Shown here in pieces: positions 2,682 to 64,000 of a DNA stretch of 64,000 nucleotides (positions are counted from its first letter, which is position 1; each line of letters starts with the position of its first letter). The position numbers and the translations under genes are program-made. This DNA comes from Candidatus Alkanophaga liquidiphilum (GTDB taxonomy: Archaea; Halobacteriota; Syntropharchaeia; Alkanophagales; B39-G2): the NCBI GenBank assembly GCA_029259535.1, contig JAPHEF010000005.1, forward strand, positions 97-64,096. The letters are read 5' to 3'. The notes under the pieces are model-generated. The model made no database searches and was not told the origin of the DNA. It saw only the letters and a program-made list of their open reading frames with translations.

Positions 2682-4856
2682 ATGAGGATAACAATATTGG
2701 GTGTTTTATTTACAGTGCTTCTCCTTAGCAATGCCATGGCGGCGTCTCCTGAAAGAGCGAGCGCCCCCGAAAAGCTGGACACTCTGTATGTCGGAGAGGT
2801 TTTAAACGTTACCGGGTTAAAGCCGGGCAGCGAGCTGAAGCTTTATAAGAACGCCGAAAAAGTTCTTTCCGTCGAGGCGAGTGCCGGCGGATACGCCGTC
2901 ACGAAAGTAAACGTGGAGGCTGGCAGCTACGAGCTGAGGTGCACGCTTGAGAATGGCACGACCCTTAAAAAACATGTGGAAGTCCACTCCCCACTACTGG
3001 AAATAAAGGTCGTTGACAAGCAGGGACGAAAGGTAAAGGTGGTGGCTGTCAGCGCTCTTTTACGTTTCGACGTAGAGTTTCAGATGCCTGAGGACGACGT
3101 CGTGAGGGTGCGGCACGAGACGCCCGATGGCATTAGGGAGACGCTGAAGACGACCGCCGTGAGCAACCTTTCAAGCCTTAAGATAAGCACAAAGGGGTGG
3201 GAAGCTGGCACGCACGAACTCTGGGCTGAGACGATAAGCAGCATGTCCCGAGGCTTGAGCCTCACGTCAAACGTTGTGAATTTGACAATTCGCTGGCTGG
3301 AAATTACTGCTGGAAGGATGACGGTGGCGGAGGGTGAAAGTATTCGGTTCGTCGTGCGGGCGCTGCCCGAAGTTGCGTTCAGGTGCAACGTCACGCACCC
3401 CGAAACTGTTTTAATGACTCCCGCCTACGACAACCCCTTTGGCTTAGAGTTGAAGCGAGCGTGCAGTATGAGCGCAAGCCCGTTCTGGAAGGGCGGTTTC
3501 GCTGCGGTCACTGATGAAAGCGGTGTTTATGAGTTTGCGCTGCAGTTTAACAAGAGTCAAACATATTCGGTTTGCGTGGAGGCAGACCTCGACGGCGACG
3601 GCGAGTTCGGCGAGGATGGTGAAACGGCAAAATTAGATATAGAGGTTAAACATGCATTTGTGAGCTTGGAAGTGCCAGAAATAGGCATCGTCGGCGAGCT
3701 CGTGAGAATTCGAGGCGAGGCGAGCGGTGGCAGGGACGTGGACATCGTGATTGACAACATTTTGGAGCTTGACGACGTGCCTCTGGCAGACGGCGGCGTC
3801 TTTGAAGTCTATTGGGACACGAAAGGAAAAACTGCGAGGAGCTACGTTGTGAAGGCATACGTGGATTGCCACGTCGAGGACATTGGGAAGGGTGACGACG
3901 TCGAGGAGGTGTATTCGGAGCTGGACGTCGCCGGGGCGGCTACCGTGCGGCTAATAGAGCCCTGGGTCGCAATAACTGAATCGAAATGCGAAGTCGCTAA
4001 GGGCGACAACTACTTTGTGAAGGGCGTTGCATACGGCGCTGACAGCGTGGACATCGTCATCATAGGACCAAACGGCTTCGAGACGCTGCCGATGGGCGTG
4101 GAAGGTGGCTTGTATGTGGCATCCTCAGAGGTCTCTTGTAACAACGAGTTCGAAATTAGCATAAACATCCCGAAAAACGCCAGCAGTGGCGTTTACACCG
4201 CCGTGGCGACTATTCCCAGCTGCGACCGCCGCTACGGCAGCACCAGAGAAGGGCAGCTCCTCTCAGCGTTGCTGGAATGTTACAATGAAAACAACAACAG
4301 CGAGCTCGACGAGCTGCTGGGCAGGAGTCCTGCGCAGCTTTTTGATTACATCAGTGAGGCGACGTTCTACGCAAAGGGTAGCGACGACAAGTTTGCTGTG
4401 ACGGTCTTCGTGGTCTCCGCACCTTACCTGAAGATAGAAGCTGTCGGGAGCGTCGAAGTGGGAACGCCCATCACGATAAGCGGCACGACGAACAGAGAGA
4501 ACGGGACGCTCGTTGCAATAACATGCATTTCTGGACCTACGGAGCTGCCAAGTACCGTGGTGAGCGTGGAGGGCGGTAGGTTCGGCGCAAGAATAGACAC
4601 GAGTAACGCGGTTCCAGGGATATACAGGATAAAAGCAGAGGAAGAAGGTGGAAAAAGTGATGAGGTTACCATAGAGCTTACGGGCGTGCCACCAGCAACG
4701 CCGCTGGAAACCCCGATGCTGGTAGAAACGCCGATGCCTTCGCCGAGCCCGACTGGGACACCAACGCCAAGCCCGACGCCACCAGGCTTTGAAGTGTTAC
4801 TTGCAAGTGTTGCAGTGGCTGCTGCGTATCTGCTGAGGGCTAAGAAAAGGAAATAG
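2682..4856 (+). CDS. Secreted cell-surface (S-layer-like) glycoprotein with PGF-CTERM archaeosortase sorting signal
   Basis: N-terminal signal peptide. Thr/Pro-rich linker TPTPSPTP. C-terminal PGF + hydrophobic helix + RAKKRK (PGF-CTERM). Confidence 0.75.
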   Translation: MRITILGVLFTVLLLSNAMAASPERASAPEKLDTLYVGEVLNVTGLKPGSELKLYKNAEKVLSVEASAGGYAVTKVNVEAGSYELRCTLENGTTLKKHVEVHSPLLEIKVVDKQGRKVKVVAVSALLRFDVEFQMPEDDVVRVRHETPDGIRETLKTTAVSNLSSLKISTKGWEAGTHELWAETISSMSRGLSLTSNVVNLTIRWLEITAGRMTVAEGESIRFVVRALPEVAFRCNVTHPETVLMTPAYDNPFGLELKRACSMSASPFWKGGFAAVTDESGVYEFALQFNKSQTYSVCVEADLDGDGEFGEDGETAKLDIEVKHAFVSLEVPEIGIVGELVRIRGEASGGRDVDIVIDNILELDDVPLADGGVFEVYWDTKGKTARSYVVKAYVDCHVEDIGKGDDVEEVYSELDVAGAATVRLIEPWVAITESKCEVAKGDNYFVKGVAYGADSVDIVIIGPNGFETLPMGVEGGLYVASSEVSCNNEFEISINIPKNASSGVYTAVATIPSCDRRYGSTREGQLLSALLECYNENNNSELDELLGRSPAQLFDYISEATFYAKGSDDKFAVTVFVVSAPYLKIEAVGSVEVGTPITISGTTNRENGTLVAITCISGPTELPSTVVSVEGGRFGARIDTSNAVPGIYRIKAEEEGGKSDEVTIELTGVPPATPLETPMLVETPMPSPSPTGTPTPSPTPPGFEVLLASVAVAAAYLLRAKKRK

Positions 4857-5282: not shown

Positions 5283-5486
5283 CTTACAAGATTTCGGCGA
5301 GAAAGCTTATGATTTGAACCGAAGCGCCGCTAAATTAAAACTTGTTTGTCCATGTTCTTTTTAACGAGGCTGCGGTGAGCCAGCCTGTCGTGAAACTCCA
5401 ACTCGGAACCGGAGCGGTGCTCCTAAAGGGGTCGGAGTGGAGAGGCTTAACGTGAAGCTCCCGGCTTTAGCCGCGGAGTAGCTCAC
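5283..5486 (+). repeat. Conserved intergenic element, copy A (paralog of 13649-13878)
   Basis: Shares blocks CTTACAAGATTTCGGCGAGAAAGCT, GGTGAGCCAGCC...TCGTGA and GAAGCTCC.GGCTTTAGCC..GGAGTAGCTCAC with copy B. Confidence 0.6.
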
Positions 5487-5504
5487 GATGCAGTGTTGCT
5501 TTTT

Positions 5505-7517
5505 TCATTTTGGCAGCGTGAAGAAGAAACGGCTGCCCCTACCCACTTCGCTCTCAGCCCATACGCGTCCGCCATGTGCCTCCACGACGCTCCGCACGAC
5601 GAAAAGCCCAATCCCCATGCCCTTTTTATGAGATAAGTAGCTGCCAACCTCGTAAAAAGCCTCAAATATTCTGTCAAGCTCGTCCTTTGGGATGCCGACG
5701 CCGCTGTCGGCGACGCAAAACTCAACAGCGTCCCCTTTATCCTCAGCGGTTATCTTTATCAAACCATCCTCCTCAGTGAACTTCATAGCGTTCTCGAGCA
5801 GGCAGTAGAGGGCATGCACGACCTTTTCAGCGTCGCATCTCAACAATATTTCGGGTGCCGTCGCATCTAACTGCTGTCCCTGTTTCAGCAGCGGTCTGAC
5901 GGCTTCGACAGCGTCCGCCACGAGCGCCCTGACATCACACTCCTCAATGGCAAGGCGCAGCCCACCATTTCTGATTACAGCAACTGTTCGAAGGTCGTTC
6001 ACAAGCCTCGTGAGGCGTTGCAGCGCCCTTTCGATGCTGTGGAGGCGTCCTTCCTGCTCAGCGTTCAGCGTGCCAAACGAGTTGCTTAATAGCAGCTCGA
6101 CGTTGCCCTTGATTATCGTGAGCGGAGTGGCTATTTCATGCATCGCTATTGTTATGAGGTTCGATTTCAACGCTTCAAGCTCAAGCTCTCGAGTGTATGC
6201 TTGCTTCAGCGACTCATACGCCTTCTTAAGCTCTGCCTCTAACGCCTTTTTCTCGGTGACATCCCTTGCAATGATTATGACAGTGTCGCTGTCGTCGTGT
6301 TGCAGCCCGCCGGGTCGGCGCACGCAGCTCGCCGCTACTTCCAGCACGAGGGTCCTGTCCCTTCCTTTGAACTTCAGGATGCTTGTGACATCTTCGCCCT
6401 TTAGCGCTTTCGAAAAGATTTCTGACGCTGTTTTGCGGTCCTCCTCAAGGACGAAGTCGAGCACCGCCTTCTCTAAAAAGTCTTCCTTCGAGTATCCGAA
6501 CACCTCCAAAGTCCTCCTATTAACCTCTAAGAAGCGTCCAGCTTTATCGAGCACGATAAAGGGTTCGGAGGCATTATCGAAAAGTTCTTGATAATTCGCC
6601 TTTGACGCCTCCAGCTCTTCGAGGAGCGCCGTCCATGCAATGGTATGAGATGCGAGGTCTGCGAACGCAGAGAGCAACCGCAGCTCGAACTTGCTGAACT
6701 CCTTATACTCCGTGGTTGCGATGCAAAGCACGCCGATAGTCTCGTCCTGCAGCTTTATCGGAACTGTGAGGTAGGATTTCAGCCCATACCTGTTGATAAC
6801 GTGTCTCTCAACCTCTTCAGGCAAGTTCAGGGTCCGCAGGTCTTTGATATAGTGAATCTTCCCGTCGAGCGCCGTTCTGCAGCTCAGGTCATACTTGTTC
6901 TCGCTGAGCTTTATGCGGCGGCGCAGCTCCCAATACTCCTTGCCAAATCCCCTTGTCGCTGCGGTGATCAACTCGTTTTGTTCTCTGTCGAGCAACCGTA
7001 TGGACGCATGCTCGAGGCTCATCATCTCGCAAACGGTGTTCAAAGCGGCATCAAGTGTTTCCCTCATGCTCACGCCATTAACGACTTTCATGCTCGCATC
7101 GTAAAGGGCGTTGAGCCCAGCCATCCGCTCTTCAGCAAGCTTTTTGAGCTGCTTATTGAGCATTTCGAGCCGCTCGCTGAGCGACGCCGTGACCGCAGCG
7201 ACCGTGAGGAAGATGATGCTTCTGAAGACGTCCAGCAAGAAGACATTAGGCACAACGCCGTAAGTGAAATGCAAGCCGAGCAGGAAGATGGCGGAGGCGA
7301 CGGCGATGCCCATGCCTTTCCAGCGCCACCAGACCGCCGCAAGCACAATGGGCACGTAGAAGAGGTGTGTGTGAAACGCTTCTACGTAGAGCGCCCGGCG
7401 GAAGTAATAAGCAATGCCGCAGCAAAGAACGAAGGTTATAAGAACTGAGAGCACTTCAATTCCGACAGCCCGCTCTTGGGCAACTTGTTCCTTCCGAGCA
7501 GCGTTTGAAACTGTCAA
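5505..7517 (-). CDS. Membrane-anchored sensor histidine kinase with GAF and PAS domains
   Basis: N-terminal TM helices. H-box HEIATPLTIIKGNVELL. HATPase G-box DSGVGIP. PAS and GAF-like segments. Confidence 0.85.
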   Translation of the reverse strand: MTVSNAARKEQVAQERAVGIEVLSVLITFVLCCGIAYYFRRALYVEAFHTHLFYVPIVLAAVWWRWKGMGIAVASAIFLLGLHFTYGVVPNVFLLDVFRSIIFLTVAAVTASLSERLEMLNKQLKKLAEERMAGLNALYDASMKVVNGVSMRETLDAALNTVCEMMSLEHASIRLLDREQNELITAATRGFGKEYWELRRRIKLSENKYDLSCRTALDGKIHYIKDLRTLNLPEEVERHVINRYGLKSYLTVPIKLQDETIGVLCIATTEYKEFSKFELRLLSAFADLASHTIAWTALLEELEASKANYQELFDNASEPFIVLDKAGRFLEVNRRTLEVFGYSKEDFLEKAVLDFVLEEDRKTASEIFSKALKGEDVTSILKFKGRDRTLVLEVAASCVRRPGGLQHDDSDTVIIIARDVTEKKALEAELKKAYESLKQAYTRELELEALKSNLITIAMHEIATPLTIIKGNVELLLSNSFGTLNAEQEGRLHSIERALQRLTRLVNDLRTVAVIRNGGLRLAIEECDVRALVADAVEAVRPLLKQGQQLDATAPEILLRCDAEKVVHALYCLLENAMKFTEEDGLIKITAEDKGDAVEFCVADSGVGIPKDELDRIFEAFYEVGSYLSHKKGMGIGLFVVRSVVEAHGGRVWAESEVGRGSRFFFTLPK

Positions 7518-7712: not shown

Positions 7713-8129
7713 GTGGAGGGAGAAAAACCGAATTTGGAAAAATATTCCTGCCCTAATCCTAAGTGCCCGGACTTCGGCGTTTTCGGCGGGGGTAATTTGG
7801 TCTTACATGCACCATATGGCACGCAACGCACCTACCTCCTCAGGTGCAAGACCTGTGGCAGGACGTTCTCGGTGCTTCGGGGAACGCCGTTCTTCAAGCT
7901 ACGAACTCCCAAAGACACCGTCATAAAGGCGTTCTGGCAAATCTCCGAGGGGTACAGCTTCAGGAAGACTGCTAGGGACCTTGGAGTAAGTGAGGATTCT
8001 ATCACAAGATGGACGAACAGGGCTTGTGAGCATGTGGACTTCCTCACGCAATACCTAGAAGAACTGGGGTGGGAAGAAGCACGAATCACGGCATTGTGGT
8101 TTTACATCAAGAAGCGCAGGAAGGTTTAA
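7713..8129 (+). mobile_element. IS1-family InsA-like transposase N-terminal fragment (zinc ribbon + HTH), orphan or truncated
   Basis: CPNPKCPDFG...RCKTCGRTF zinc ribbon followed by HTH GYSFRKTARDLGVSEDSITRW. No InsB/DDE part follows, because pcm starts on the opposite strand. Confidence 0.45.
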
Positions 8130-8811: not shown

Positions 8812-8885
8812 TGGGCCCGATGCGACTCGAACGCATGACCTCCGCCGTGTGAGGGCGGCGTCATAACCACCTAGACCACGGGCCC
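8812..8885 (-). tRNA. tRNA-Val (anticodon CAC)
   Basis: Reverse complement folds as a cloverleaf: acceptor GGGCCCG/CGGGCCC, anticodon stem CCGCC/GGCGG, loop CTCACAC, T-loop TTCGAGT, discriminator A. No encoded CCA. Confidence 0.85.
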
Positions 8886-11820: not shown

Positions 11821-12603
11821 CTACGTCGCCCCCACGATCATTTTCATGATTTTCCTAACGGCGACGGATGCCGAGGAGTCTTCAGGGAGGTCGACGACGG
11901 GTTTTCCGAGGAGGTCAAACTCCGCGACCTTTGGGTCGTAAGGTATGATTTCGTGGAGTTCGATGCCGTGCTTCCTCGCTTCCTCCCTTACCTTCGCTTC
12001 AAGCCCCTCGGGAATTCTGTTCGCCACGTTTATTATCTTCTTGATGGCTATGTCAATCTCATCAGTTAGTTTTCTGATGCGGAGCGCCGTCAATATCCCT
12101 TTGACGGTTGCGTCCGTGATGACGAGCATGATGTCCACGTCTCTCGTCGTGCGGCGGCTGAGGTGTTCGAGCCCTGCTTCGCAGTCAATGACCGTGTAGT
12201 CATAATTCTTTGAAAGCGTGTCTATGACCATTCTAATGATGTGATTGACCGGGCAGTAGCAGCCCGGACCCTCAGGGCGCCCCATGACCAGCAGGTCGTA
12301 ATGGTCGCCCTCGTAAATTATTTCCATGATTTTGCCCTCGAATTCTCGGCGCTTGTCGCCGGTGACGCTCTTTTCCTCCAGCAACGCCTCTCGCATTTCG
12401 CCGACGCTCGCCGCGATGCTCACGCCGAGCGCATCCGGGAGGTTGGAGTCGGGGTCGGCGTCTATTGCTAAGATGCTGGCGTCTGGGAACTCCTTGCTTA
12501 GTTCCCTTATCAGGAGCGCCGCAACCAATGTTTTCCCAGTGCCTCCCTTCCCTGAAATTCCAATAACGGTGCCCAACGGCATTTTCTTAGCCCTCAAACT
12601 CAC
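11821..12603 (-). CDS. CooC/AcsF-like MinD-family ATPase (metallocentre or nickel-insertion accessory protein)
   Basis: Deviant Walker A GISGKGGTGKT. CxC motif GCYCP characteristic of CooC. Start overlaps the upstream gene stop (ATGA). Confidence 0.7.
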   Translation of the reverse strand: MSLRAKKMPLGTVIGISGKGGTGKTLVAALLIRELSKEFPDASILAIDADPDSNLPDALGVSIAASVGEMREALLEEKSVTGDKRREFEGKIMEIIYEGDHYDLLVMGRPEGPGCYCPVNHIIRMVIDTLSKNYDYTVIDCEAGLEHLSRRTTRDVDIMLVITDATVKGILTALRIRKLTDEIDIAIKKIINVANRIPEGLEAKVREEARKHGIELHEIIPYDPKVAEFDLLGKPVVDLPEDSSASVAVRKIMKMIVGAT

Positions 12604-13637
12604 ACAAGTTCGCTCAACATGCTATCCACAATCTCCCTCAAAAGCCCCTCAGGGTCGTCGTAGTATTTGGAGCCCGCTGCCGGCTTTATCCGCCCGACGA
12701 CTGAAGAGAATGCCATCTCACGCACGTCGTCGAGCGTAGCAACGTTCCGCCCGTCGAGGAGCGCCGCCGCTTGCACCTTCTCATAAAGGGAAATGGCGGC
12801 TCTTGCGGAGGCGCCCTGCTCAAGCTCCTCGCTCCACGGCGGCTCTCTCGTGGCTCGCACGAGCTTTACTATCGCATCAAGCACCTTCCCCGGAACCTCA
12901 ACGCTCTCCAACTGTTTCGCATTCCTCAAAATTATCTCCTTATCTTCCTCTTCAGTTTCAGGATACCCCATCTTCGTGACGTCGAACCTGTCCAAGAGCA
13001 CGTCTGAAAGCTCCTCGACGCCCGCCCGCTCTCTCGGATTCATCGTCGCGATCATGATGAAGTTCGACGGGTAGTCCACATCGTAGGGTCCAATGGTCGC
13101 AATCCCTTCCTCTAAGACTTGGAGCAGGGCGTTCTGCAGCTTCTCAGGCACCCTGTTCAGCTCGTCGAAGAAGACTATGCCCCTGTTTCCCTTCAACAGC
13201 TTCCCGGGCGTGAACGCCCGATAGTCCTGTGGTCCGTATTTAAAGGCTTTCGTTGGGTCGATGTCGCCGAGTAAGTCTTCTGCCGTTAGATCTGGCGAGC
13301 CTTGGATGCGGACGAAGCGTTTTATCCCACTTATTTTTTCGGTTTCCAGAGTCTCGCCACGCTCCTTCATTGCACGACATAGCGGACATACTGGCTCCCC
13401 AGGGTCACAGTGGTAAGGGCAGCCTTTCACCACCTCGATTTCGGGTAGCAGCTCTGCGATGTGTTTTGCGAGCGTCGTCTTCCCAACGCCGGGGTAACCT
13501 TCGATTAGGATGTGATGCCCGGCGAGCAGCGACGATATTATCTTGCGCTTCGCATCTCTCTGCCCAATGATGACGTCCAGCGGGTCCTTCCCATTCCTAA
13601 TATGTTCCAAAATTACCTCTCTAAGGTCTTCCAACAT
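12600..13637 (-). CDS. MoxR-like AAA+ ATPase with an inserted 4-Cys zinc ribbon
   Basis: Walker A GYPGVGKTTLAKHIA. Walker B/sensor VFFDELNRVPEKLQNALLQVLEEG. Insertion CPYHCDPGEPVCPLC between them. Confidence 0.7.
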   Translation of the reverse strand: MLEDLREVILEHIRNGKDPLDVIIGQRDAKRKIISSLLAGHHILIEGYPGVGKTTLAKHIAELLPEIEVVKGCPYHCDPGEPVCPLCRAMKERGETLETEKISGIKRFVRIQGSPDLTAEDLLGDIDPTKAFKYGPQDYRAFTPGKLLKGNRGIVFFDELNRVPEKLQNALLQVLEEGIATIGPYDVDYPSNFIMIATMNPRERAGVEELSDVLLDRFDVTKMGYPETEEEDKEIILRNAKQLESVEVPGKVLDAIVKLVRATREPPWSEELEQGASARAAISLYEKVQAAALLDGRNVATLDDVREMAFSSVVGRIKPAAGSKYYDDPEGLLREIVDSMLSELV

Positions 13638-13648
13638 GCCCCTTACCT

Positions 13649-13878
13649 CTTACAAGATTTCGGCGAGAAAGCTCATGGTTCAAACCATGAGCCGAATCGC
13701 CGATAGTTTTAAATACCTCCTCATCTATCCTATTCCCAGCGAGCTCAGAGCTATATGCTCTGGGTAGGGGCTGAGGTGAGCCAGCCCCGTCGTGAGGCTC
13801 AGGCTCTGGGCAGGTTGCCCTCAAAGAGTCTGAGCTGAGAGGCATGAAGCTCCTGGCTTTAGCCATGGAGTAGCTCAC
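13649..13878 (+). repeat. Conserved intergenic element, copy B (paralog of 5283-5486), with intact long 5' hairpin
   Basis: Hairpin TCGGCGA-GAAA-GCTCATGGTT-CA-AACCATGAGC-CGAA-TCGCCGA. The 3' block GAGGTGAGC pairs with GCTCACCTC at the element end. Confidence 0.6.
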
Positions 13879-14058
13879 CTCTTTCCTCCCTTAACAGATT
13901 TCACCCTCAAATCTTTAGAATGGCACTTCCTGCACCGTTTCGCCCTCATAGCGTTTCGTGCGTTGCAGTTCATGCAAATCTTCACATGCAGCAGCCGACG
14001 CTCAGCCTCTGGGAACCGTGCCATCGCTCCTTCACCTTGACCCTTTTACTATGTTAAG

Positions 14059-15156
14059 CTATAATAGTTCATAAAGGGTATTCCTTTTTCTCGGAATTCT
14101 TCCAGCCTCTCTTATCAGACGCTCAAGCGCCTCAGGACTCATGTATTCGCCAGAGGTCGCCCCCGCCGCCTTAGATATGTTCTCTTCCATTAAGGTGCCT
14201 CCCAAGTCGTTAGCGCCGAAATCGAGCATCTTCTTGGCGCCTTTGGGCGTGAGCTTCACCCACGACGCCTGAATATTGTCACAAAGTCCATGGAGGACGA
14301 CGCGGGCAAGGGCGTGGACGACTGCGCACTCGAAGAACGAGGGCGCCCGCCCGCCAATCATTCTTCCGAGTTCGTTGTTCTTCGGCATGAAAGGCAGAGG
14401 TATGAACTCCGTGAAACCTTTAGTTTCCTGCTGAATCTTTCTTATTAGGAACAAGTGCTCGATTCTGTGTGCGGCGGTCTCGACGTGCCCGAACATCATC
14501 GTTGCCGTTGTTGGGATGCCGATGCGATGTGCCGCCTTTATTATTTTAACCCACTCCTCAGTCCTCAGCTTCTTAGGGCAGATTTCATGACGCACCTTAT
14601 CAACGAGGATTTCAGCAGCAGTTCCTGGCATAGAGTCGAGCCCTGCCGCCTTTAACTCCTCTAAAACGTCCTCGATGCCGAGTTTGGAATTGTCGGCAGC
14701 GTGCTTAACTTCCATCGGCGAGAATGCGTGAATGTGCACGTCGAAATTCTCTTTTATGCGTTCAAGAATTTCGCAATAGTCTTCAATGCAGAAGTCGGGG
14801 TGCAGCCCGCCTTGAATGCAGACTTCGACGGCGCCACGCTCAACCGCTTCCGCTATCTTATTTATGATCTCTTCAATGCCCAAGAGGTAACCCTCACCCG
14901 TCTTGCGTCTGAAAGCGCAGAACTTGCAGCTCCCAATGCAGACGTTCGTGAAATTGATGTTACGATTCACTATGTAGGTGACGACGTCGCCGCACGCCGC
15001 CCTTCGAAGCTCGTCAGCAATTCTGAACAGCAAATGCGGGTTTTTAACTAAAAACATGGCGTCGTTCTTCGTGACGTCGCCTTTCCTCACTCTCTCGTAA
15101 AGCGTCTCTGCCGCCGCCACGCAGGCGGCAGCCGCCACCGCTCTCACGCTTACCAT
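14059..15156 (-). CDS. cofH: Radical SAM enzyme of the CofH/CofG/MqnC family (likely FO synthase subunit CofH)
   Basis: CIGSCKFCAF radical SAM motif preceded by NRNINFTNVC. About 365 aa. CofD also lies in the window, supporting an F420 context. Confidence 0.65.
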   Translation of the reverse strand: MVSVRAVAAAACVAAAETLYERVRKGDVTKNDAMFLVKNPHLLFRIADELRRAACGDVVTYIVNRNINFTNVCIGSCKFCAFRRKTGEGYLLGIEEIINKIAEAVERGAVEVCIQGGLHPDFCIEDYCEILERIKENFDVHIHAFSPMEVKHAADNSKLGIEDVLEELKAAGLDSMPGTAAEILVDKVRHEICPKKLRTEEWVKIIKAAHRIGIPTTATMMFGHVETAAHRIEHLFLIRKIQQETKGFTEFIPLPFMPKNNELGRMIGGRAPSFFECAVVHALARVVLHGLCDNIQASWVKLTPKGAKKMLDFGANDLGGTLMEENISKAAGATSGEYMSPEALERLIREAGRIPRKRNTLYELL

Positions 15157-32168: not shown

Positions 32169-32246
<78 letters not shown>

Positions 32247-62404: not shown

Positions 62405-63433
62405 TCAAGGCTCGCATCGCACGACGAACGTATCATTAAATTTTTCGACGGTAAACTTCACGTCGAGGAACTTCTGCGTTATGTAGATGTTAGTGTCGAG
62501 GTGTTTTGTCACTTCTCTGACTTTTATCTCCGAAACCTCGCCGTCGGCGGCGGCGAGCGCCATGTAAGGCACGAGTTGGTCCGCGAGATGAACATCGACG
62601 GTGGCATTGGACTCAAGCTCACTTAGAATCGCAGCAGCAGCCTCCTCGCCGACGGCTTCCGCCCGCTTTCCCCGCTCGCCGAGGGCGCCCCCTGCCTTAA
62701 AGTCCTGCCAGAGAGTGATGCCGCTCCCCGGGCATGGGGTCTCTACCGTTTCGATTACGATGCTGGCGTCGTAGCCACGACTCTCAAGGGCACGAGCGGC
62801 GGCTCTCGCCTGCCGCTCCGCAACGTGCCTGGGCAAGGAGCCACAGTGCGAAACTCCTTTGACTTCGTTGCTACGCATCTCAAACTCGGTCAGGATGAAG
62901 CGCTTAAGCCCGCCGCTCAGCGGCTCAATGTGCGCTTCGACAACCCCCCCGCCTTTTGGGTAATAGCCACGTCGTAGGAGTCGCAGCGAAACTTCGCAGT
63001 TCATTTTTCGCAACGCCTTCAAAAAAACGTTCTTGTAGAAGTCGAAGGGCGGCGACCACGCAACGTCCGTCCCCCCTACAACTCTAAGGCTCGTAGCCTC
63101 ATCTGCGAAGAGCGCTGCGGGAATCAGGCATTGCAGGAGGAGTGTGATGCTGCCCGCCGTCCCTATATTTATCTCAAGACGCCCCCCCTCAACCCTTGAG
63201 GGTAAGAACTCAAGCGTAGTAGAGCGCAGCTTCAAACCCCTAACTTCAGCGTTGCATATTCGGCGGACGGTGTCCACCGCATTCAAATGCTGCGCTGCGA
63301 GCCCCGGAATCGGACGATTCGCTCGTATTTTCTCAATGCGAACGGGCTTCCCCGTGACCGCAGAAAGCGCCACCGCCGTCCTTACTATCTGACCGCCACC
63401 CTCGCCGTAAGAGCCATCTATCCTCACGTGCAT
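62405..63433 (-). CDS. rtcA: RNA 3'-terminal phosphate cyclase
   Basis: MHVRIDGSYGEGGGQIVRTAVALSAVTGKPVRIEKIRANRPIPGL is the RtcA N-terminus. Start placed at the internal Met; the ORF-track 5' extension is rejected. Confidence 0.85.
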   Translation of the reverse strand: MHVRIDGSYGEGGGQIVRTAVALSAVTGKPVRIEKIRANRPIPGLAAQHLNAVDTVRRICNAEVRGLKLRSTTLEFLPSRVEGGRLEINIGTAGSITLLLQCLIPAALFADEATSLRVVGGTDVAWSPPFDFYKNVFLKALRKMNCEVSLRLLRRGYYPKGGGVVEAHIEPLSGGLKRFILTEFEMRSNEVKGVSHCGSLPRHVAERQARAAARALESRGYDASIVIETVETPCPGSGITLWQDFKAGGALGERGKRAEAVGEEAAAAILSELESNATVDVHLADQLVPYMALAAADGEVSEIKVREVTKHLDTNIYITQKFLDVKFTVEKFNDTFVVRCEP

Positions 63434-64000
63434 GGTTTTCTCGTTTCGTTTTAGTTTAAATTTGGCTTCCGCTTGCGTAGCGTGCCGCGCCGCTGCTCGT
63501 CGCCGTAGCAGCCCCTTAGAAACGACATCGAAAGCAGGACGCTGGACATGTGGAACATCGTCCTCAGCGGCTGGGATGTTTTCATGCCGACATTCAGGAT
63601 GAAGAGAAATGCGGCGGCATCTGTCGTCCCGAGGGTCAGGCTCAAGCTTGGTGAACCTGTCGGCGCCACTGTTCTCTTCGAGTCTCCGCGTTCGTCCTTC
63701 TTGCAAACTTCAGCTGGAGCACTACTGCACGGCTCGTGATTCCTGCAAATCATCTCGTCGTCGGCGAATACGCCTTTGTCGCAACGTTCGAGGAGCGTCA
63801 CAAGTTTCAGGGAAGTTCCCATGATAACTGTGGAATGGCGGAGCTGTGAACCCCGCAAACCAGCATGGAGATAGGTGAAAAGCCTACTTGAACGCTGGAA
63901 GCCCCTTCCGATAGGGAGGGGTAGTTCACTCTTCATGTCAGCCCGCAAGCAGTGCGTCGTCTCGTCATTTAAAGCTTGTCAAGCGGAGTCATGGGTTGTT

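Follow-up and report, generated by a model that had tools for sequence, protein, structure and literature searches.

What are the two conserved intergenic elements that lie in the same orientation in a 64,000-nucleotide (nt) stretch of contig JAPHEF010000005.1 of Candidatus Alkanophaga liquidiphilum, here called the window? Copy A (positions 5283 to 5486) and copy B (13649 to 13878), both on the + strand, had been proposed from the sequence alone (the sequence-only reading) to be either a novel small RNA (sRNA) family or a miniature mobile element. Our analysis makes it probable that copies A and B, together with a weaker copy C, are non-autonomous, tnpB-deleted relics of insertion sequences of the IS200/IS605 family (IS1341 type), comparable to palindrome-associated transposable elements (PATEs) and miniature inverted-repeat transposable elements (MITEs). 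As judged by sequence comparison, the window RNA is an ωRNA scaffold that belongs to a TnpB clade of archaea, and it is a distant relative of the Rfam family HgcC. The anatomy of the copies, their homology to tnpB-bearing elements, their boundaries, and covariation at the RNA level were observed in this analysis.

Copies A and B share three blocks, as had been claimed, and their coordinates and strand were confirmed. The 25-nt block CTTACAAGATTTCGGCGAGAAAGCT was found exactly twice in the window, at 5283 and 13649, and the 34-nt 3' block TGAAGCTCCnGGCTTTAGCCnnGGAGTAGCTCAC also occurs exactly twice, a result reached for either block by 0 of 100 shuffles. In a pairwise alignment the copies have a mean column identity of 77%. 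The count of two copies held for A and B only, as a covariance model built from the RNA family (R1) and run over the window scored not only copy A (5288 to 5486; 53.9 bits) and copy B (13654 to 13878; 63.5 bits) but also a third, diverged copy C (63837 to 63929, + strand; 35.7 bits, E = 2e-6).

A metagenome scan with the pattern GGCTGnnGTGAnCCAGCC-N65-95-GnAGnTCAC returned at least 120 loci. A genome collection was scanned with a degenerate DNA pattern; of the 111 stretches obtained, 109 came from GC-rich bacteria and matched by chance, and the only true relatives were L053 and L105, both from Candidatus Alkanophaga volatiphilum; a scan of viral contigs found no relatives. The loose DNA pattern also picked up, by chance, an unrelated palindrome (GCCACAGGCTGGCTGCTCTGAGCCAGCCTGTGG), similar to repetitive extragenic palindromes, on several contigs (L062, L086, L101, and two sites in L106) of the Planctomycetaceae metagenome-assembled genome PE_seawater31. 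The RNA relatives fall into several subfamilies, which have the tail and the hairpins at the 5' and 3' ends in common and differ in the middle domain. Counts of relatives given here and below hold among the matches listed.

The relatives connect the RNA to TnpB. In 31 loci, a same-strand open reading frame (ORF) of at least 340 amino acids ends inside the RNA, with its stop about 5 to 17 nt before the RNA end; usually this stop is the TAG of ...GGTAGTTCAC, 5 nt from the end. Six of these 31 ORFs were scanned against Pfam, and all six matched PF07282, the Cas12f1-like TNB domain, while one of them also matched OrfB_IS605 weakly, below the cut-off. With a TnpB hidden Markov model (HMM) built from the RNA-overlapping ORFs, TnpB was found directly upstream of the RNA in 57 metagenome loci, its stop codon lying within the RNA. 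Among the copies for which this was determinable, TnpB was upstream of 21 of 25 HgcC-type RNAs, all 22 AACTGGGGC-type RNAs, 10 of 12 TCTCCCCC-type RNAs, and 4 of 9 AACTCCCG-type RNAs, and of none of the five window-type RNAs. In the relatives the RNA therefore has the position of an ωRNA, namely, at the 3' end of tnpB, on the same strand, and ending at the right boundary of the transposon; the window copies have lost tnpB by deletion. The closest named TnpB proteins among the best 120 matches are from Archaeoglobus, Thermococci, ANME-1-related archaea, and a Methanophagales virus, and Asgard proteins were also among them.

The second line of evidence is the relation to HgcC (RF00062), an RNA found in 2002 in Methanocaldococcus and Pyrococcus, for which the function is given as unknown (PMC4615843, PMC5732400). 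The tetraloop motif of HgcC has been tied to RNAs at the 3' end of IS1341-type tnpB and to PATE-derived RNAs (Gomes-Filho et al. 2015, PMC4615843). A comparison with Rfam, which the sequence-only reading had suggested, returned nothing at copy A or B at gathering thresholds, but a permissive scan gave a lead in the form of a weak HgcC match at copy A (17.9 bits, E = 0.052); copy B had no HgcC match at E <= 10. The HgcC scores form a graded series from the tnpB-overlapping RNAs of L117 (47.7 bits) and L133 (42.9 bits), through the RNAs of L105 (44 bits at 1312 to 1409, - strand, and 27.5 bits) and L053 (27.7 bits), down to copy A. An architecture consisting of a 5' hairpin with loop-to-tail pairing, a tetraloop hairpin, and a GGAG.AG.UCA tail is common to HgcC and the window RNAs. 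As HgcC-scoring RNAs overlap tnpB stop codons and have TnpB upstream, HgcC-like RNAs appear from these sequences to be the ωRNAs of an archaeal TnpB clade. The window copies stay below the HgcC gathering score of 50 bits; they are a diverged sister subfamily and are not to be filed as HgcC members.

That the elements specify a structured RNA, as the sequence-only reading had held, was borne out by a consensus of 11 tnpB-less copies, which comprises seven helices including a pseudoknot. Pairing was found in 94.1% of the pairing cells, versus 37 to 45% in slid controls, and 20 pairs were changed on both sides, versus 2 to 6 in the controls; the covariation score was reached by 0 of 500 shuffles. 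The RNA strand was assigned as + because of the many G.U pairs. From 5' to 3', the RNA consists of a 5' hairpin (stem 1), a GGCUG/CAGCC hairpin (stem 2), a long hairpin in the middle domain, and, at the 3' end, a hairpin of the tetraloop type. Stem 1 (helix 1), in which 8 of 9 pairs change on both sides, is a hairpin with a TATAT loop at 13743 to 13765 in copy B and is missing from copy A. Stem 2 is at 5367 to 5385 in copy A (GGCTG/CAGCC) and at 13768 to 13787 in copy B (GGGCTG/CAGCCC), with the loop GTGAGC at 5375 to 5380 and 13776 to 13781, respectively. The middle domain of copy A (5387 to 5452; helices 4 to 6, supported by folds) is a long interrupted hairpin with the apical part GGAGC-GGT-GCTCC, and that of copy B (13789 to 13843) is a long hairpin with the apical part GGGCA-GGT-TGCCC; the RNA fold listed for the latter has a minimum free energy of -77.6 kcal/mol (z = -5.6). 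The last ωRNA stem (helix 7) is the 3' hairpin, GCTCCCGGC-TTTA-GCCGCGGAGT at 5457 to 5479 in copy A and GCTCCTGGC-TTTA-GCCATGGAGT at 13849 to 13871 in copy B, which in DNA is the subterminal hairpin of the right end. Both copies end with GCTCAC (5481 to 5486 and 13873 to 13878), which provides the 3' strand of the pseudoknot and marks the right boundary (...TCAC).

The complementarity between GGTGAGC and GCTCAC had been described as a covarying closing helix. It is real and covaries across the wider family, but it is a pseudoknot, as the HgcC alignment puts GGTGAGC in the loop of the GGCUG/CAGCC hairpin: the stem 2 loop GUGAGC pairs with the 3'-terminal GCUCAC, just as the HgcC loop CUGACC is complementary to the tail GGUCAG. 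The test of this pairing was limited to the one position that the search pattern left free. At this position, the 104 distinct aligned sequences had CG in 42, GU in 25, AU in 18, GC in 15, and other combinations in 4, so that 100 of 104 formed a standard pair; the covariation score was 0.105, a value attained by none of 500 shuffles, for which the score was 0.032. In the raw count, 119 of 124 pattern matches paired; this count takes in the window copies, two loci from genomes, and matches due to chance. The compensatory differences that had been reported to extend this helix (GAG.../...CTC in copy B and CTGC.../...GCAG in copy A) involve bases 3' of GCTCAC; the extension was rejected because the flanks are unrelated among the copies, and with no consistent pairing across the 11 copies it is a chance match. 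An alternative from RNAalifold, in which GUGA just 5' of the 3' hairpin pairs with the terminal UCAC, was also dropped, since other subfamilies have no such GUGA and the loop-to-tail pairing covaries. The result is a multi-stem scaffold with a pseudoknot beside the predicted guide, as in ωRNAs.

The boundaries are those of a mobile element, which upholds this part of the original proposal. In an alignment of 11 window-type copies with their flanks, similarity starts right after TTAC(A) wherever the left flank was available, the flanks being otherwise unrelated, and stops right after GCTCAC in 11 of 11 copies. The TTAC, the predicted insertion target or left cleavage site and TnpB transposon-associated motif (TAM), is at 5284 to 5287 in copy A and at 13650 to 13653 in copy B; it was also found to the left of the elements in L053 and L105 and in the tnpB-bearing loci L133, L200, and L220. 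The right flanks (GATG... in copy A; CTCT..., CTCTTTCC, in copy B) do not repeat the left flank, so there is no target-site duplication. Insertion at a conserved tetranucleotide, without target duplication or terminal inverted repeats, is a feature of non-autonomous IS200/IS605 elements.

Subterminal hairpins were found at both ends of copy B and at the right end only of copy A, and the right hairpin (helix 7) covaries. The left-end hairpin of copy B (13660 to 13703) is a composite, TCGGCGA...GCTCATGGT-TCAA-ACCATGAGC...TCGCCGA, and a candidate TnpA-binding subterminal palindrome; folded as single-stranded DNA it has 7 + 9 bp and -17.1 kcal/mol (z = -6.7), a stability reached by 0 of 200 shuffles. 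It had been described as a 7 + 10-bp hairpin; the hairpin is real, but the 10-bp form would need a 2-nt loop. The long terminal hairpin named for the element holds for copy B only, as the left end of copy A (5288 to 5330, AGATTTCGGCGAGAAAGC...) has a truncated hairpin that does not fold (z = 0.08), a short form that it has in common with L175.

Near-identical copies sit in differing flanks. The RNA part of copy A has 93% identity to L155 and 97% identity to L175 (1 to 103), both in other contexts, and copy B has 92.5% identity to L199, whose 3' flank differs. Across the family, many genomic contexts were seen, and copies with 92 to 97% identity in other contexts indicate, at the sequence level, recent spread. 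Because copy A is near L155 and L175, copy B is near L199, and the two are only 77% identical to each other, copies A and B appear to be separate insertions of two lineages and not a local duplication. Two elements were also found on L175 (1 to 103 and 5223 to 5450) and two, of different RNA subtypes, on L201 (135 to 239, + strand, and 4517 to 4735, - strand).

Both ends of the window copies are homologous to protein-coding IS200/IS605 elements: the left end to that of L133, L200, and L220, and the RNA to those lying over tnpB stops. In the full-length elements of L133, L200, and L220, TTACA is succeeded by a GCTAAGAAAGC-like block and then by a hairpin; next come a TATA box and the tnpB start codon, ATG, and in L133 and L220 the left hairpin is followed by GATGAATT. 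In the solo copies, a left end and a TATA box of matching type are fused to the final 120 to 150 nt of the element. As their left end and TATA box match those of tnpB-bearing relatives, the solo copies are apparently internal-deletion derivatives, in which the tnpB promoter now lies about 25 nt from the RNA start. The putative promoter of copy A is an A/T-rich, TATA-like box (TAAATTAAAA, 5331 to 5340) about 25 nt upstream of the RNA 5' hairpin; it aligns with boxes of the TTTAAATA type in related copies, as well as with those that precede tnpB in the full-length elements. The box of copy B (TTTTAAATA, 13707 to 13715), likewise a putative promoter, is about 25 nt upstream of stem 1. A trace of the lost gene may persist in copy B, where the ORF at 13713 to 13838 has weak similarity to the TnpB C terminus (TnpB HMM, E = 0.005). 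The sequence-only reading had named a duplicated gene fragment as an outcome that would speak against a structured RNA. The RNA region does come from the 3' end of tnpB; its conservation, however, is structural and not coding.

Established TnpB biology (PMC8612924, PMC10055086) suggests how such elements might work. The copies keep, in order, the TTAC target, the left end, which includes its hairpin and the TATA promoter once used by tnpB, and, in the final 120 to 140 nt of the transposon, the ωRNA scaffold ending in ...TCAC. The retained promoter, if active, would transcribe the scaffold together with about 16 to 20 nt of flanking DNA as a guide. The predicted guide of copy A (5487 to 5506, + strand), placed 3' of the right end, is GATGCAGTGTTGC followed by a T-run, and that of copy B, placed likewise, is CTCTTTCCTCCCTTAACAGA (13879 to 13898, + strand). 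A TnpB encoded elsewhere in the genome would bind the scaffold RNA, and the complex would cut TTAC-adjacent empty sites after TnpA-mediated excision, so that recombination repair of the cut empty site could restore the element and result in homing or retention. With the help of the end hairpins, TnpA acting in trans may transpose the element as a single strand ("peel and paste"). According to Meers et al. (PMC10055086), PATEs "often encode ωRNAs," on which TnpB acts in trans.

The two copies have different neighbors. Copy A lies between a 724-amino-acid protein of unknown family with a 76-amino-acid ORF (both on the + strand) and a convergent GAF-PAS histidine kinase gene (5505 to 7517, - strand), whose 3' end is overlapped by the predicted guide. 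Copy B lies between a divergent MoxR-type AAA ATPase gene (12600 to 13637, - strand) and a gene for a radical-SAM protein of the CofH/MqnC type (14059 to 15156, - strand); 12 nt separate the ATG of the ATPase gene from the flanking TTAC. The MoxR protein has 100% identity to one listed at NCBI for Candidatus Alkanophaga liquidiphilum. On the + strand there is no gene downstream of either copy, and hence a cis-regulatory element, leader, riboswitch, or 5' untranslated region was ruled out, the neighbors being convergent or divergent with no shared downstream gene. The contig that carries both copies was also found in the assemblies ERZ26872902 and SRR222147xx. On L240, a related Syntropharchaeia-type contig, a full tnpB (215 to 1348, + strand) directly precedes a MoxR ATPase orthologue that has 80% identity, and the 3' end of this tnpB contains a weak R1 match (1267 to 1368, E = 0.3); the region upstream of the MoxR ATPase gene has been struck by IS200/IS605-type elements more than once.

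Several results weigh against an origin of the copies as tnpB-deleted insertion sequences that can still be mobilized. There is no tnpB in the 64-kb window, where the relic ORF at 13713 to 13838 is the sole TnpB-HMM match. Of the five determinable copies of the window type among the matches listed, none carried tnpB, and no tnpB-bearing element turned up with this RNA or this left end; the window-specific left-end variant was seen only in the tnpB-less L175, L179, and L201. The search for TnpB homologues placed no Alkanophaga protein among the best 120 matches. Empty sites were not recovered for copy A or copy B in the nearest relatives, in which synteny is not conserved: the nearest MoxR orthologues (80 to 81% identity) have other upstream neighbors, and the orthologue of the 724-amino-acid protein (77% identity) is followed by TIP49 and not by the histidine kinase, with intergenic DNA that does not align. 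Two subfamily members, L139 and L189, have a C-C mismatch in the pseudoknot. Copy A has a 26-nt gap in place of stem 1 and a left hairpin that does not fold; it looks decayed and is probably immobile and decaying, whereas copy B is intact. Finally, we infer the TnpB and TnpA partners in this genome, transcription, promoter activity, the guide length, and TnpB binding by analogy with characterized systems. The partial TnpB at positions 1 to 639 of L105 is a possible partner within the genus. This locus is dense in such relics: the first 8 kb of L105 (JAPHEE010000005.1) contain, with the partial TnpB, four HgcC/ωRNA-like matches (1312 to 1409, - strand; 3309 to 3410, + strand; 6105 to 6189, + strand; and 7088 to 7209, - strand).

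These points could be taken to mean that the copies are dead, decaying fragments that are neither mobilized nor used as guides, any transcription being noise. The state of copy A, the lack of tnpB in the window and of a cognate tnpB-bearing master for the window RNA subtype, and the lack of a recognizable left end in copy C all fit this explanation. It does not readily account for the 20 double-sided changes and 94% pairing found in tnpB-less copies, which are free of coding constraint, nor for a TATA box at a constant distance from the RNA, for copies with 92 to 97% identity in other contexts, or for the intact ends of copy B, and we regard it as somewhat unlikely, though deserving of serious consideration. 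The window-type RNAs could also form an independent "guide-only" lineage with its own promoter and with its RNA structure selected across several archaeal genomes, the elements being hyperparasites of the TnpB and TnpA that other elements produce, or exapted regulatory or decoy RNAs; this we consider unlikely. The retained promoter and a structure conserved without a coding gene might also reflect a domesticated host RNA or a selfish regulatory RNA without nuclease-mediated homing. Such an RNA might be an antisense RNA, a guide for a nuclease-dead TnpB-like repressor, a TnpB sponge, or an RNA with growth effects like those of the haloarchaeal PATE RNA. There are precedents, as an overexpressed PATE-derived RNA improved the growth of Halobacterium (PMC4615843) and in bacteria TnpB has been domesticated into RNA-guided transcription factors (PMC10705468). 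A transcript of copy A would, moreover, be antisense to the histidine kinase gene at the 3' end of that gene. The copies, however, have no neighboring genes in common, their guides would be whatever flank was present at the landing site (the predicted guides have no second match in the window), and no TnpB-like repressor was identified, all of which makes exaptation quite improbable.

Two further explanations do without mobility. In a resident, non-mobile sRNA family, the TATA box might be a conserved promoter and the palindrome an operator upstream of it, and no Rfam family was reported here at gathering score. The left block, though, has its homologue at the left end of insertion sequences with tnpB, the TTAC and ...TCAC boundaries recur in unrelated contexts, and homologues of the RNA lie across tnpB stop codons, so that this highly improbable explanation is largely refuted. 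The other would make the 85-amino-acid ORF that spans copy B (13621 to 13878, - strand) the functional unit. It is in the ORF list, and the gene caller of the public assembly predicts an 81-amino-acid gene there (L001, 11291 to 11536). This call has no Pfam domain on record, the ORF is not kept in copy A and the relatives, where 26-nt and other indels break the alignment, and the substitutions fit compensatory base pairing, with G.U, on the + strand. We therefore give almost no credence to a small protein gene, which is refuted by the indel and covariation pattern; the 81-amino-acid call is probably spurious over a structured element. The original suggestion of a novel sRNA family also falls, as the RNA is the ωRNA scaffold of an HgcC-related TnpB clade. 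The internally deleted insertion sequence remains the reading that we prefer.

Copy C, which belongs to the "...GGTAGTTCAC" subtype, is intergenic and lies upstream of rtcA (62405 to 63706, - strand); it has neither a recognizable left end nor a tnpB on its upstream side. In copy C the loop GTGAAC and the 3' GTTCAC are complementary, and its stem is GCGG/CCGC where the others have GGCTG/CAGCC. Between copies A and B, next to a tRNA-Val gene, a 138-amino-acid ORF (7713 to 8129, + strand) has weak, below-cut-off Pfam matches to helix-turn-helix domains, one of which is that of ISL3 transposases; this ORF may be another mobile-element remnant. The tRNA-Val (CAC; 8812 to 8885, - strand) was called by ARAGORN, and the Rfam tRNA model at gathering score reported only a tRNA-Arg at 32169 to 32243.

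For annotation, three stretches that are un- or misannotated, one of them now an 81-amino-acid "gene," become mobile-element relics with predicted guide RNAs. More broadly, HgcC, an orphan family without a listed function since 2002, would be accounted for as the ωRNA that goes with a TnpB clade of archaea, the direct sequence evidence being that HgcC-like "orphan" RNAs of hyperthermophilic archaea overlap tnpB stops; in the literature searched, HgcC and TnpB are rarely mentioned together. The clade is large (at least 120 metagenome loci), thermophile associated, and has an IS608-like TTAC motif, and it may be of interest to those who mine for compact, thermostable RNA-guided nucleases.

Among the closest known systems is the TnpB ωRNA (reRNA) of IS200/IS605 and IS1341-type elements such as ISDra2 (PMC8612924). 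As in these, the RNA is at the extreme right end on the tnpB strand, it overlaps the tnpB stop in the relatives, it has a multi-stem scaffold with a pseudoknot beside the guide, the guide would derive from flanking DNA, and the TAM is predicted to be the transposon target motif. The window copies differ in having no upstream tnpB and a predicted TAM of TTAC, as in IS608. The TAM of ISDra2 is TTGAT. With HgcC they have in common the GGCUG...CAGCC hairpin and the loop-tail pairing (CUGACC/GGUCAG in HgcC; GUGAGC/GCUCAC here), followed by a purine-rich linker, a UUUA/UUCA-loop hairpin, and GGAG.AG.UCA; the middle domain of the window RNAs is longer and different, and their HgcC scores (17.9 bits in copy A and none in copy B) compare with a gathering score of 50. 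The 3' hairpin of copy A is the "RE-like tetraloop" motif of HgcC and of sense-overlapping transcripts (sotRNAs) (PMC4615843).

The ends resemble those of IS608 from Helicobacter pylori, in which cleavage and insertion take place 3' of a TTAC that precedes the left hairpin by 19 nt, with TCAA as the right end (PMC3201880). Both elements lie 3' of TTAC without target duplication and have subterminal hairpins at both ends; the left site is 17 to 19 nt 5' of the hairpin foot (17 nt in the window, 19 nt in IS608), and the right end, a few nucleotides 3' of the right hairpin, is TCAx (TCAC in the window, TCAA in IS608). The A-rich GAAAG just 5' of the window left hairpin may correspond to the IS608 guide AAAG. 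In contrast to IS608, the window copies have neither tnpA nor tnpB, and their predicted right cleavage site is 7 nt, not 10 nt, from the hairpin foot.

As a kind of element, the window copies are already known, and they represent neither a new RNA class nor a new mechanism. PATE-like ωRNA elements without tnpB have been described (PMC10055086, PMC4615843), examples being the PATE-like elements of ISGst in Geobacillus stearothermophilus (PMC10055086) and the PATE RNA VNG_R0052 of Halobacterium (PMC4615843). Like PATEs, the window copies have fused left and right ends and no protein gene, the right end encodes an ωRNA- or sotRNA-like RNA with a terminal tetraloop hairpin, and they would presumably depend on TnpA and TnpB in trans. 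The new points are modest, namely, the explicit link between HgcC and ωRNA, the fusion of a promoter to an ωRNA, and a subfamily seen only without tnpB among the matches listed. In contrast to described PATEs, the elements reside in a thermophilic, alkane-oxidizing Syntropharchaeia archaeon and have an HgcC-like scaffold, they keep the TATA promoter that once served tnpB, now at a distance of about 25 nt from the start of the RNA, and their RNA subtype was found, among those same matches, exclusively in tnpB-less form.

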